Shown here: one piece after another, positions 26,315 to 30,643 of the stretch
Layout: each line of letters begins with the position of its first letter
Numbering within the stretch: the first letter of the stretch is position 1
From: Escherichia phage phiD2-2
DNA: 49,337 nucleotides
Sequence record: OR861627.1
Direction: 5' to 3' (one strand)
The notes under the pieces: model-generated
Told to the model about the DNA's origin: nothing
The model's database searches: none
The model's input: the letters and a program-made list of their open reading frames with translations, nothing else
Program-made: the position numbers and the translations under genes

Positions 26315-26983
26315 ATGCACTTACCAAATGGCGCGCAAATTTTCGTGGAAACCTCTCGCGGAGAAGAGATAGAGGCGACCGCTGTCACTAACGAAAAAAA
26401 TCCTGTTGCTACAGTTGCATCTAAGGGCGACTTAGCAAAAGGCGATTACGTTATTGTAACTCAGTCAACCTGGGCCAAGATGGTCAGTCGAGTGCTAATT
26501 GTTACTGACGCTCAGGAAACAAGCATCACTCTTGCTGGGATTGACACCTCTGATACTCTTGTTTTCCCGGCTGGCGGTACGATGAGCTTTGCAAAAATTA
26601 CTGGCTGGACTGAGATTCCTTGCGTACAGGAGATTGGTCAGGACGGCGGCGAGCAGCAGTATTATACTTATCAGTGCTTGTCAGACGATAAAGAACAGCA
26701 GATCCCAACGTTTAAATCTGCGATCTCGCTAACGTACACTTTCGCGCACGAATTTGATAACCCGATCTACCAGATTCTGCGCAAGCTGGATTCGTCTGGT
26801 CAGGTAACAGCGGTTCGAATGTACGTTCCGAAAGCGAGCGAAATGCGTATGTGGGCTGGCATCTTGTCGTTTAACGATATCCCATCCACGCAGGTTAACG
26901 AAATGGAAACGGTGGAACTCGCCGTATCCCTGAAAGGTGACTTTACTTTCATTTCATCCACTCTGGCATCGCCTGGTGCTTAA
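26315..26983 (+). CDS. major tail protein (putative)
   Basis: 222 aa gene directly upstream of the G/GT chaperone pair, followed by a terminator. Confidence 0.55.
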   Translation: MHLPNGAQIFVETSRGEEIEATAVTNEKNPVATVASKGDLAKGDYVIVTQSTWAKMVSRVLIVTDAQETSITLAGIDTSDTLVFPAGGTMSFAKITGWTEIPCVQEIGQDGGEQQYYTYQCLSDDKEQQIPTFKSAISLTYTFAHEFDNPIYQILRKLDSSGQVTAVRMYVPKASEMRMWAGILSFNDIPSTQVNEMETVELAVSLKGDFTFISSTLASPGA

Positions 26984-26994
26984 ATCCTATCCAT

Positions 26995-27020
26995 AGGGGG
27001 CTTGCGCCCCCTTGTTCATT
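26995..27020 (+). terminator. rho-independent terminator after the major tail gene
   Basis: Stem GGGGGC/GCCCCC then T-rich run. Confidence 0.6.
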
Positions 27021-27056: not shown

Positions 27057-27096
27057 TTTTAACAAAAAGTGCTATCAACCAATCAGGAGAAACATC
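27057..27096 (+). promoter_or_regulatory. palindrome plus conserved leader upstream of the G chaperone
   Basis: TTTTAACAAAAAGTGCTAT then CAACCAATCAGGAGAAACATC then ATG. Confidence 0.45.
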
Positions 27097-27414
27097 ATGG
27101 CTAAATTCAATTTCGTGTTGGGCCAACTTCCAGACTTCAAACTTCCGGTGACATTCACCATGCCAAACGGCGAGGATGCGACTATTATTTTTACAGTACG
27201 CCACCTTTCCAGTAAAGAAGTGCAAGATATGTATGCGAAGCAGGGCGAAATGAATGATAGCGATTTCATCACTAAGATCGCGTCAGGCTGGAATCTGGAA
27301 GAAGAATTTAACGAAGAGAATGCGCGTAAACTGGTACAGTATTATCCTTCCGCAGCATACAATCTGACGGCAACTTACATCAAGGCGCTCGCCGGACACC
27401 GCGCAAAAAACTAA
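27097..27414 (+). CDS. tail assembly chaperone (lambda gpG-like)
   Basis: 105 aa gene immediately upstream of the tape measure gene; ends just after a slippery heptamer. Confidence 0.7.
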   Translation: MAKFNFVLGQLPDFKLPVTFTMPNGEDATIIFTVRHLSSKEVQDMYAKQGEMNDSDFITKIASGWNLEEEFNEENARKLVQYYPSAAYNLTATYIKALAGHRAKN

Positions 27415-27731
27415 AAAGGGCGGTTTATCTGTTATATCAGAAACCGCCGACAGAAGAGCAATTGCGATCGGTTGGTCTTAGTCTTTCTGACTATGAAGGC
27501 GAGGAACCGGAAACGATAATCGGCGATGCTGAAATGGTGAAGGCGTGGAATGTTTTTACGTCAATGCTCACTCAGTGGAGAAGTTCAGGCGCTGGAGCTT
27601 ATGGTCTTGACTATAATGTTTTGCCTATGTTGTTCAAAATCTATAAAATAGAAGATGAAGAACTGGCATTGCAGGACGTTAGGATCATGGAAGCGAAAGC
27701 GCTTGAAATGATTGCTAAGCAAAACAACTAA
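27097..27731 (+). CDS. tail assembly chaperone frameshift fusion (gpGT-like), by -1 slip near 27405-27411
   Basis: -1 frame is open from the slip site to the stop at 27729-27731 (about 211 aa total). Confidence 0.55.
27405..27448 (+). other. programmed -1 ribosomal frameshift signal (slippery A AAA AAC plus downstream hairpin)
   Basis: Heptamer at 27405-27411 sits 1 codon before the G stop; 7-nt spacer; perfect 8-bp stem GGCGGTTT/AAACCGCC at 27419-27448. Confidence 0.65.
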
Positions 27732-27753
27732 GCCGCCGTTTGGCGGTTTTTTC
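27731..27753 (+). terminator. terminator-like hairpin between GT stop and tape measure start
   Basis: Stem GCCGCC/GGCGG then T6. Confidence 0.5.
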
Positions 27754-27769
27754 GTATATAGGGGGTTAT

Positions 27770-30643
27770 ATGGTTGATAAGGTAGCAGGTCTGTCGCTTG
27801 ACGTTGATGTGTCAACAGTGCAGCGCGCCGTCAAGTCACTGAAAGAGTTTTCAAAGGCCAACGACCAGGCCGCTGATTCTATGGGTTCTTTAATCAATGA
27901 GTCAGAGGTTGCAAAACAGAAGGCCAAAGAACACGCTGAACAACTCAGGCGTCAGAGAAAAGAGTATGAGGCCGTGGAGAAGGCAATCGATCCTACAGTA
28001 TCAAAAATGGAAAGGTTGAAGATTGCATCTCAGCAGCTTGATAAACTCTGGCAGCAGGGAGTCGTTCCAGATGAGACATTTTTCCGTTTGGGTGAAATGC
28101 TGGATCTGCAAAACGCAAAACTTGCTCTCAGCCGGGCTATGCTTACGGAAGAAGGTCAGGCGGCATTGCAGGAAGCGAAAGCAAAAGAGCAGGCGGCAGC
28201 ACGAAGCAAGGCGTTCATGGATGCCCTGAATGGTCAAGTTAACGCGATCGGCAAGACTCATGCTGAATTGATGGAACTGAAAGCGGCTGAGCTTGGTTTA
28301 TCGAAAGAAGCAGCACCACTAATCGCAAAACTTAAAGATCAAGGCCGGGCTATGAATGCAGCAGGTATTAGCGCCGGGGAATACAGGCAGGCAATGCGAA
28401 TGCTTCCTGCACAGATTACCGACGTCGTTACATCTCTTGCATCCGGCATGCCAGTTTGGATGGTTGCCATCCAGCAAGGCGGTCAAATCAAGGACTCGTT
28501 CGGCGGGATCAGTAATACGTTTAAAGTGTTGCTGAGTTATATTAATCCAGTCACAGCAGGGGTTGGCGTTCTCGTTGGCTCGTTAGGTCTTCTGGCGAAA
28601 GCTGGTTATGACTCTTACAAGTCAATAACTGATATTCAGAATGCGCTTATTGAGACTGGCGGTTATGCAGGTGTTACGGCTGAAGAGCTTGATTCAGTGT
28701 CTAAAAAGATCGCACAGACAAGCAACTCAACCATTGGGAGTATTCGCGATATTGTAACGGAGTTGGCGAGTTCTGGTAAGTACACCCGCGAGCAGATCCA
28801 GAACATCACTAAGGCTACCGCAGAGTGGTCAGCGTCAACAGGAAAATCAGCAAGCCAAATTATTTCTGAGTTCGACAAAATCGCAAGCGATCCGGTAAAA
28901 GGCCTGAAGAAGTTAAACGAGCAATATAATTTCCTTGAAAAAGGGCAACTTACCTATATCGATACATTAAGCCGGACGAAAGGAGAAACTGAGGCAGTAT
29001 CAGAGGCTACCAAACTATTCGCAGACGTAATGGAAAAGCGAATGAAGTCGATCGCGGATAACGCTACTCCTCTGGAAAAGATGTGGAGCGATATTAAACA
29101 ATGGGCTTCGGACGCGTGGGGATGGGTTGGTGATCATACACTCGGGGCGCTAAACCTGATTGTCGACGTTGTTCAGGGTACAGTGATTCAGGTTAAAATG
29201 ATTCTTGCGAAGGGTGATGAGTACATCTCAAACTTTATCGCCTCAGCCATAAAGGCAACTCAGTCACTACCTGGAATGAGTGATTTCGGCGCTGATGTGC
29301 TGAAGGAGCAGGAGAACATCGTAAAAAGTTCTCGCGACAACTACGACCAGTTGGCTTCAGAGCTTGATGCTATTAACGCTCGCGTAGAAAAAGGCGAGAT
29401 GGGATACGTTGAAGCGATGAAGCAGCGTCGAACTCTTGAAAAGCAGTACAGTGAGGAAACTAGGGAGGCAATAAGGAAAGAAGCAGAAGAGATCGAGAAG
29501 CGAAACCGAGAAAGAAATAAGCAGTCGAAAATTGTACGCTCACCGACAGAGCAATTCGACAAGGAGTTAATTTCACTCAAGGCTCAACTTAAGGTATTGC
29601 AGGAGCATAAGGAGATCGGTCAAAAACTTTCCGCGCAGAGAAAGGCGCTGTTTACTACCGAGGCTACGATTGCTGTTCTTCGTGAAGCCAGCTCTAAGCG
29701 TCAGTTGTCTGCGGAAGAAAAAGCGTTGCTGGCAAGTCAGGAGAGAGTTATTGAGCTTGCGAAACAGAAGGCCGAGATTGGCGATCAGATTGTTAAGCAA
29801 CAACAGTTGAATGATCTTACCGATAAATCTCTGAAGTTTGTCAATGAGATGACGGCAGCTACAGAACAGCTAAACGCGTCTCGAGGGATGAGCACCCGAG
29901 AAATGGAAAGGCAAGCTGAGTTGGCTAAGATCACTACTGATTATATTAATGCAGGTGGCAGCGAAGGAGATGAAAAACTCCAGAACATGATCAAGGCACA
30001 AAATGATTACTATGCTGCGGAAGATGCCAAGCGTTCTGACTGGTTAGCAGGTGCTGAAAGTGCATTTGCAGATTACGGCGATTCTGCAATGGATATGTAC
30101 GGCAATGTGTATGATATCGCGTCAAGTTCACTTAACGGAATGAGTGACATGATGACCCAATTCCTGACTACAGGTAAGGCAAATTTTGAGGACTTTGCGA
30201 AAAACATCATTAGCATGATTATTAAGATGATTGCTCAAATGGTAATCTTCAATACGATCTCAGGCATGATGGGCGGTAAGACGTGGAGCTTTGCTGGAGG
30301 GGTGTCGCCTGGTGCTTCTGCGGTATCACAGGCAACTCCTACGCCTGCCGTCTCTGGTTTTAGGTCTTTATCTTCAGGCGTCGCTGTTACCTCGCTTGCT
30401 GCCGCTGCGGGTAGTGTTGCAACATCTGGATTTAACGCATCTAAATCCGCACCGAAGGCAGTGAACCAATCAGCAGGCGGGACGGTCGTTGATGTTAGGG
30501 GTATGGAGGTTAAAGTTGACAACGGTTCAGATCCGAGAGGAATTTCTCAGGGCGTAGAAATGATGTTCAAAAAAATGATTCGAGAGTCTTGTTCACAGGG
30601 CGGAGAGGTTTACAATTACATTCAGGAAAAAACAGGAGGCTAA
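27770..30643 (+). CDS. tail tape measure protein
   Basis: About 957 aa, coiled-coil-rich N-terminal two thirds, glycine/hydrophobic segment near C-terminus; track ORF trimmed to ATG (MVDKVAG) with AGGGGG RBS. Confidence 0.85.

Follow-up and report, generated by a model that had tools for sequence, protein, structure and literature searches.

A predicted -1 ribosomal frameshift of the G/GT type precedes the tape measure gene in a T1-like phage genome

Phage lambda reportedly makes gpG and gpGT with the slippery heptamer G GGA AAG, a system said to have been described by Levin et al. in 1993 and by Xu, Hendrix & Duda in 2004, 2013 and 2014. We know of no downstream structure that the lambda frameshift requires. 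The lambda G:GT ratio is about 30:1. A G/GT-type architecture has been described for dsDNA phage tails, according to the citation of Xu, Hendrix & Duda 2004 in PMC7660901 and PMC5009743. Phage Stevie is said to have ‘a conserved translational frameshift’, and the Rogue1 paper discusses a possible G-T-type fusion for that relative. The frameshift cassette analyzed here is already known from phage T1. The curated GenBank entry for T1 (AY216660.1) has a CDS in two pieces at the equivalent coordinates, ‘tape measure chaperone, frameshift product’, and a short chaperone, which share one ribosome binding site (CPTT1_038/CPTT1_039; AAP49960.1, AAP50000.2). We found no experimental demonstration of the frameshift for T1 or T1-like phages in the literature searched.

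We analyzed the cassette in a stretch of 49,337 bases, which is referred to in its full length as the window. The 801 nt around the site are 100% identical to those in the Escherichia phages JMPW2, vB_EcoS_SH2, FCWL1 and vB_Henu5_2, and 97.4% identical to those in T1. These identities indicate that the window is in all likelihood a complete Tunavirus genome (T1-like, Drexlerviridae). Its tail module has the order major capsid protein (PF09950), tail terminator (PF13554), tail tube protein (PF08813), G, T, tape measure protein (TMP) and homologues of lambda M, L, K and I. Features around the slip site are listed in Table 1. The original prediction had assigned the site to a tail module, and both the Pfam domains and synteny agree with this (PF08813, PF08748, PF08809, PF06791/PF09718). 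It had also placed the fusion directly before TMP, which is right in gene order. The TMP start codon, ATG 27770, was taken from the FCWL1 and T1 annotation. It is located 38 nt past the T stop codon, with a terminator-like hairpin in between. In T1, the equivalent of this hairpin is annotated as ‘terminator, rho-independent’, and the equivalent of the Shine-Dalgarno sequence upstream of G is annotated in AY216660.1 as the ribosome binding site for both CDSs.

Table 1. Features of the cassette and its neighbors, in window coordinates
Feature	Position	Strand	Basis or remark
Tail tube (major tail) protein gene, upstream neighbor of the cassette	26315..26983	+	PF08813 Phage_tail_3, E 2.1e-70; phrog_584 major tail protein
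Shine-Dalgarno AGGAG for the chaperone ORF, and hence for the predicted fusion	27085..27089	+	Sequence
G, tail assembly (tape measure) chaperone ORF, 105 aa, frame 0, stop included	27097..27414	+	PF08748 Phage_TAC_4, full length, E 2.6e-37
Slippery heptamer A AAA AAC	27405..27411	+	P-site AAA Lys104, A-site AAC Asn105; sequence
Frame-0 stop TAA, abutting the heptamer	27412..27414	+	Its TA sit in the first -1 codon, CTA (27411-27413)
Downstream hairpin GGCGGUU/AACCGCC, UA bulge, UCUG/CAGA, 6-nt loop	27419..27448	+	7 nt past the heptamer; -16.1 kcal/mol
T segment, 106 codons of the -1 frame and stop 27729-27731	27411..27731	+	PF08809 DUF1799, E 5.6e-12
Terminator-like hairpin (AAGCCGCC GTTT GGCGGTTT) and T-run, from the T stop to the tape measure gene	27730..27755	+	Consensus scan
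Tape measure protein gene, downstream neighbor	27770..30643	+	PF06791 TMP_2, E 1e-73; PF09718

The G reading frame ends with CGC GCA AAA AAC TAA. All features named in the original prediction were found at the positions it gave. The heptamer is in the X XXY YYZ phase, and the stop codon said to come one codon after it is located immediately 3’ of it. The -1 frame is open from 27330 through the T stop codon. The length of the fusion, previously given as roughly 211 residues, is exactly 105 + 106 = 211 residues. A AAA AAC is the only in-frame X XXY YYZ heptamer in the overlap between G and the -1 frame. ORFs of at least 100 amino acids in the window contain 41 such in-frame heptamers in 14,769 codons, and only downstream of the one at 27405-27411 does the -1 frame stay open for long (106 codons; the runner-up has 28). 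The combination of the heptamer and the long -1 extension is therefore more than chance.

The T1 cassette has the same heptamer, stop codon and hairpin, a 105-residue G and a 211-residue fusion. An exact-sequence look-up found that AAP50000.2 (211 aa) is identical to our reconstruction with a lysine at residue 105. The T1 annotators therefore placed the slip on this heptamer. The junction residue 105 is a lysine in the T1 entry, whereas a tandem slip predicts an asparagine. Among the T1-like homologues in the Drexlerviridae and T1 itself, nothing was found that differs in kind from the cassette in the window.

The matches of G to PF08748 and of T to PF08809 are both above the curated cut-offs. 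The family phrog_17368 (213 positions) aligns with G at positions 1-107 and with the -1 extension at 109-212 as one protein, which indicates that fused forms have been deposited as single proteins. The exact G protein is present in public databases as ‘Tape measure chaperone’. In the distant relatives L094, L107, L109 and L120, PF08748 is encoded in frame 0 and PF08809 in frame -1, and the distant members include a Pseudomonas aestiva prophage. A word-indexed protein search with the 211-residue fusion returned two T-domain matches only; the diversity of homologues was taken from scans of loci and not from this search. A sequence search of the PDB with the fusion returned noise only (E about 0.14 to proteasome subunits), with no solved relative detectable by sequence.

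About 200 homologous loci were gathered from viral contigs and genomes. From these, a first set comprises the unique nucleotide sequences of 74 G-T cassettes, with protein identity as low as about 32%, and a second set of 56 unique junctions comes from diverse viral contigs. Variation in 55 unique junction contexts revealed a switch of the coding frame. Upstream of the heptamer, position 3 of frame 0 varies most, with a mean entropy of 1.51 compared to 0.64 and 0.42 at the other two positions. Immediately downstream of the stop codon, position 3 of frame -1 varies most (1.22 compared to 0.36 and 0.50). The first 14 codons of the -1 frame encode LKRAVYLxYQKPPT in nearly all Drexlerviridae, and synonymous changes in them are abundant (AGG/CGG/CGC, GCG/GCC/GCT/GCA, GTT/GTC/GTA, TAT/TAC, CAG/CAA, AAA/AAG and CCG/CCA/CCT/CCC).

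These data bear on the possibility that T is an independent gene of 89 residues, translated without a frameshift from a start codon of its own, TTG 27462. An ORF of this kind exists, and FCWL1, SH2, JMPW2 and many other records list a separate protein. In five relatives, a GAGG is located a few bases upstream of the TTG. However, the TTG in the window is preceded only by a weak AAGAG, and the frame -1 periodicity already starts at the heptamer. The 17 codons of the -1 frame from the stop codon to the TTG, which is the first possible start, encode a peptide that is strongly conserved, and most of the variation in these codons is synonymous. Across the 74 cassettes, the first in-frame start of T is found anywhere from codon 7 to codon 50, mostly without a Shine-Dalgarno sequence, and no start codon is conserved. 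In 22 of them it is at codon 41, inside the DUF1799 domain. The conserved peptide upstream of the TTG and the lack of a conserved start indicate that T is translated as a continuation of G, and we consider an independent T gene very improbable.

The slip signal is highly conserved among the relatives. A heptamer is found directly before the stop codon in 68 of the 74 unique cassettes, as A AAA AAC in 57 and as G GGA AAC in 11. Five cassettes from the Rogunavirus group (JK06, Sf12, C119, e4/1c) have GCA AAG GTC TAA instead, and one (L102) has GCA AAA GCC TAA. These six keep only an A_AAG or A_AAA tetramer, and the full heptamer is therefore not indispensable. In the second set, essentially all 56 junctions have A AAA AAC or G GGA AAC. 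The heptamer abuts a stop codon (TGA, TAA or TAG) in about 50 of them, and in three it is separated from the stop codon by one sense codon (CTG GGA AAC TCC TAA). Direct pattern checks also found the heptamer and the stop codon in L160, L136 and L195. Heptamers in the PF08748/PF08809 family have the form R RRA AAC, with none ending in G or T, and nearly always abut the stop codon.

That two different heptamers interchange at one codon, with freely diverging surroundings, indicates selection for slipperiness. The stop codon appears to be selected as well. The first codon of the -1 frame is CTA in 71 of the 74 cassettes and CTG(A) in three, although CTA accounts for only 3.9% of the leucine codons elsewhere in the same genes. 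The predominance of this rare codon after the heptamer indicates selection to keep the adjoining frame-0 stop codon. The abutting stop codon could define the length or the C-terminus of G, or could stimulate the shift by its location beside a slippery run. An upstream Shine-Dalgarno-like stimulator similar to that in dnaX is not conserved; the only G-rich element there is a glycine codon, GGN, 8 nt upstream, with a variable third base. At the sequence level, the heptamer together with the stop codon is the constant element of the family.

A transcriptional origin of the fusion was also considered. RNA polymerase could add an A in the run of six A at 27405-27410, so that some mRNAs encode GT in one frame, and slippage of this kind is known to fuse ORFs in IS elements and in some phage and bacterial genes (PMC5009743). 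However, six A is a short run, and homologues with G GGA AAC keep the -1 arrangement with a run of only three. What has been conserved is therefore a slippery site spanning two codons rather than a homopolymer, and transcriptional slippage is incompatible with these homologues as a mechanism for the family in general. Bacterial RNA polymerase generally slips productively only on runs of about 8-9 or more identical bases. In addition, a hairpin at a 7-nt spacing fits ribosomal and not transcriptional stimulation. Transcriptional slippage is thus an extremely unlikely source of GT.

The frame break could in principle be an assembly or sequencing error, or the mark of a pseudogene of a single 211-codon gene. 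Four related database sequences (L040, L071, L092 and L099) have A5 in place of A6, or other indels close by, which indicates that homopolymer errors do occur there. However, the stop codon and the -1 continuation are found in all 74 unique cassettes, which come from independent isolates and metagenomes, and in the 56 unique junctions, and among the relatives none was seen in which G and T form one uninterrupted ORF. An error or a pseudogene is hardly credible as the cause. We also considered A5 in the four sequences as a real +1 variant and rejected it. Since the same sequences carry further frame errors nearby, sequencing error is the likelier cause.

Comparison with lambda revealed both similarities and differences. 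In both phages, the cassette is located between the tail tube gene (V in lambda) and the tape measure gene (H), its second ORF lacks a start of its own and is read in the -1 frame, and the heptamer is at the 3’ end of G. The remaining tail module is also similar, with homologues of U, V, H, M, L, K and I. As expected for the G/GT class, two ORFs are found between the tail tube and TMP genes, the second in the -1 frame without a conserved start. An in-phase heptamer is located in their overlap, and the arrangement is kept among diverged relatives. The G/GT-type reading put forward in the original prediction is supported by the gene order, the conserved slip site, the frame switch and the T1 annotation.

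The proteins themselves are different, with PF06894/PF06223 in lambda and PF08748/PF08809 here. A Pfam search of the window’s proteins produced no match to PF06894 or PF06223, both of which are matched by lambda’s own proteins. Alignment of the T1-type profile with hhalign gave a probability of 0.06% for similarity to lambda gpG. The cassette therefore belongs to the G/GT class by architecture and to PF08748/PF08809 by sequence. As judged from these profile comparisons, its relation to lambda G/GT is an analogy in architecture, with undetectable sequence similarity. The signals are different as well. In lambda, the efficient heptamer G GGA AAG is followed by the G stop codon six codons downstream. 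Here, the weak heptamer A AAA AAC abuts the stop codon and is followed by a hairpin.

The original prediction described a perfect 8-bp stem 7 nt downstream of the heptamer. The two strands, GGCGGTTT (27419-27426) and AAACCGCC (27441-27448), are indeed fully complementary, and the spacer is 7 nt long (27412-27418). However, RNAfold pairs only seven of the eight, and its fold adds a bulge of 2 nt and an inner UCUG/CAGA stem of 4 bp. The folded hairpin has an energy of -16.1 kcal/mol (z = -4.9), a stability that was not reached by any of 200 dinucleotide shuffles. The 15 downstream codons of the -1 frame were also changed synonymously in 300 recodings that followed the phage’s own codon usage. 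None of them reached the stability of the native sequence (-6.2 ± 2.7 compared to -16.1 kcal/mol). This suggests that the hairpin is kept beyond coding needs in this lineage. It likewise exceeds all synonymous recodings in most Tunavirus-like lineages. In L028/L085-88, L089, L091, L093-L106 and L119, which retain the heptamer, it is no better than the recodings. We rate the hairpin a putative lineage-specific modulator, and not a core or family-wide element.

The base of the hairpin is 7 nt after the heptamer, or 6 nt where relatives have one more G-C pair. A spacing of 7 nt is the usual position of a 3’ stimulator, and we lean towards the hairpin acting as a frameshift stimulator. Covariation among the relatives was considered as support for the hairpin and rejected. 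Paired cells amount to 76.9% compared to 75.5% in shuffles, with compensatory changes not above the controls, and coding constraints leave little room for compensatory change. The sequence was also inspected by eye for a pseudoknot; the loop differs among the relatives and has no obvious downstream complement.

The analysis points to a -1 ribosomal frameshift at A AAA AAC that yields GT, to which we assign a probability of about 0.9. In this mechanism, two tail assembly chaperones would be produced from one ribosome binding site. Most ribosomes would translate G (27097-27411) and stop at TAA 27412, producing the 105-residue chaperone. A small fraction would slip one base back on the heptamer. 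The likeliest event would be a tandem slip, in which the P-site tRNA-Lys re-pairs from AAA to AAA and the A-site tRNA-Asn from AAC to AAA. The slipped ribosomes would read C27411 twice, resume at CTA 27411 and translate 106 more codons to 27731, producing the 211-residue GT. The T segment would be translated only as the C-terminal half of this fusion. During decoding of the heptamer, the hairpin (27419-27448) would be located at the mRNA entry channel, where it probably raises or tunes the frequency of the slip in this lineage. The abutting stop codon may contribute. By analogy with lambda gpG and gpGT, G and the G part of GT may coat the tape measure protein and the T part may recruit the tail tube protein, and both G and GT would be absent from virions.

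The original prediction called the signal canonical. This is appropriate for the form of the heptamer, but the motif is weak in E. coli reporters (PMC4066793). Sharma et al. 2014 measured -1 shifts with lacZ reporters in E. coli (supplementary table, PMC4066793). With no stimulator, AAAAAAC shifted at 0.16%; the value was 0.19% when the IS911 stimulators were present and 0.74% when the IS3 pseudoknot was. GGGAAAC was similar (0.16%, 0.22% and 0.89%, respectively). The corresponding values were 0.29%, 4.3% and 39% for AAAAAAG, and 0.28%, 3.8% and 43% for GGGAAAG (PMC4066793). The authors concluded that AAC-to-AAA re-pairing in the A site is poorly tolerated by bacterial ribosomes (PMC4066793). 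A low yield of GT is therefore expected unless the local context helps. Either a GT:G ratio below about 1% is sufficient here, or the local context boosts the slip.

Two further systems in bacteria are similar in part. IS1 InsAB’ uses the same heptamer in the same host, E. coli, for a proven low-level -1 frameshift (cluster A_AAA_AAC_1, PMC4066793). It has no established stimulator (PMC4066793), in contrast to the hairpin and adjacent stop codon here, and its transposase proteins and biology are unrelated. The dnaX and IS911 cassettes have A AAA AAG and a 3’ stem-loop, with or without a 5’ Shine-Dalgarno-like element. The cassette in the window shares with them a poly-A-type heptamer followed by a short spacer and a G+C-rich stem-loop. 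It differs in having no conserved upstream Shine-Dalgarno-like element and in the last base of the heptamer, which is C instead of G. In reporters, this difference lowers shifting by one to two orders of magnitude (PMC4066793).

The weakness of the heptamer raises the possibility that the frameshift is ribosomal but not tandem. The tRNA-Lys could slip alone on A_AAA before AAC is decoded, giving the junction ...AKK-LKR... as in the T1 GenBank protein. Alternatively, the peptidyl-tRNA-Asn could slip at a ‘shifty stop’ while TAA waits in the A site, giving ...AKN-LKR.... AAC-to-AAA re-pairing is poor and heptamers ending in AAC are weak in E. coli. A_AA.A and A_AA.G belong to the few tetramers that are prone to shifting. 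In the lineages that lack a heptamer, what is retained at the lysine codon is precisely GCA AAG or GCA AAA. A slip at this codon would explain the tetramers in the Rogunavirus group and L102, and would make the lysine junction in T1 literally correct. The abutment of the stop codon in nearly all members, through the otherwise rare CTA, is consistent with a stop-coupled slip, and ‘shifty stops’ are known to stimulate shifting (Weiss et al. 1987, as listed in PMC5009743). However, most members outside the enterobacterial phages have G GGA AAC, in which the first codon offers only the poor G_GGA. This suggests that it is the two-tRNA site that is conserved. In addition, the heptamer and the stop codon are separated by a sense codon at three junctions, and in the Rogunavirus group the stop codon is not adjacent to the lysine codon. 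We therefore somewhat favor the tandem slip as the precise event and regard a single-tRNA or stop-coupled slip as rather unlikely. It is similarly doubtful that the PF08748/PF08809 family as a whole uses such a context-dependent slip, or needs a GT:G ratio well below 1%. If the slip is context-dependent, its efficiency would not be predicted by the standard heptamer rules.

Translation of GT by a -1 frameshift would affect how this locus should be annotated. The closest records, JMPW2, SH2 and FCWL1, are 100% identical to the window here and annotate G and T as two proteins. In many records, a separate 89-residue ORF begins at a TTG, or G and T are each called ‘tail length tape measure protein’. 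The correct gene model would be one 105-residue chaperone and one 211-residue frameshift fusion, not two small proteins, and most GenBank/RefSeq records of the closest phages would be wrong in this respect. The finding fixes the tail-module assignment, and its value is mainly the correct annotation of this genome. It provides another instance of the conserved G/GT strategy, with a modest addition: the heptamer is weak in E. coli, the stop codon abuts it and the hairpin appears to be lineage-specific. T1 would be a convenient and genetically tractable system for studying how low the GT:G ratio can go and what sets it.

The slippery heptamer is widely but not universally retained in this chaperone family. 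Its distant members (L108-L118, L120 and L122-L201), which come from viral contigs of environmental origin and from a prophage of Pseudomonas aestiva, carry either G GGA AAC or A AAA AAC, and a TGA, TAG or TAA stop codon nearly always follows directly. L173, L183 and L188 have a single sense codon, TCC, between heptamer and stop. No heptamer ending in G or T was found among all sequences examined. A Drexlerviridae-type chaperone cassette with 58% identity and the junction A AAA AAC TAA is also present in L119 (NZ_VSMK01000220.1), a phage-genome-sized contig of 46,669 bp in an assembly labelled Nitratidesulfovibrio liaohensis. This contig is probably an enterobacterial-type phage that was co-assembled or is a contaminant, and not a prophage of the named organism.

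The heptamer is lost in the Rogunavirus-type relatives (L094-L098; Shigella phage Sf12, JK06, C119, e4/1c and AKS96). The chaperone ORF (G) in these ends in GCA AAG GTC TAA, and the shift-prone tetramer A_AAG is the sole remnant (junction near 1806-1815 in L094-L098). The downstream hairpin is absent 3' of the G junction as well. The -1 frame DUF1799 extension (T) is whole, at 106 codons. A AAA AAC is retained in L093, a close relative. In one viral contig, L102, G ends in GCA AAA GCC TAA (junction near 1429-1440), leaving only an A_AAA tetramer followed by a 105-codon -1 extension.

In some public sequences, the A6 run of the slip site is shortened to A5, or G or T contains a different single-base indel (L040, a 45,806-bp contig; L071; L092; L099/L038; L036/L055). 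Errors in homopolymers or in assembly probably account for these variants, which would defeat any automatic frameshift call. Comparison with GenBank and RefSeq records showed that the cassette is annotated inconsistently. The closest records enter T as a separate protein from an 89-aa TTG-start ORF, the SH6 record gives it as a separate 65-aa ORF, and RefSeq applies one name, 'tail length tape measure protein', to both G and T. The junction residue of the T1 frameshift product is Lys, whereas tandem slippage of tRNA-Lys and tRNA-Asn predicts Asn.

Apart from the slip site, only a single in-frame heptamer in the window lies near the end of an ORF. As its -1 extension is just 14 codons, it most likely arose by chance.

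Features in the window
Feature	Coordinates	Location
Heptamer A AAA AAA	1486-1492	Two codons before stop of ORF 1097-1501
Terminator-like hairpin, T-rich tail	26995-27012	3' of tail tube gene
G/T cassette	27097-27731	
Terminator-like hairpin, T-rich tail	27730-27755	Between T stop and tape measure start

The cistron encoding G and the GT fusion is flanked on both sides by terminator-like hairpins. The 3' arm of the second, GGCGGTTT, has the same sequence as the frameshift hairpin's 5' arm. The T1 counterpart of this second terminator-like hairpin is annotated as a rho-independent terminator. Attenuation of the tail genes beyond this point is suggested by the presence of a terminator immediately 5' of the long tape measure gene.
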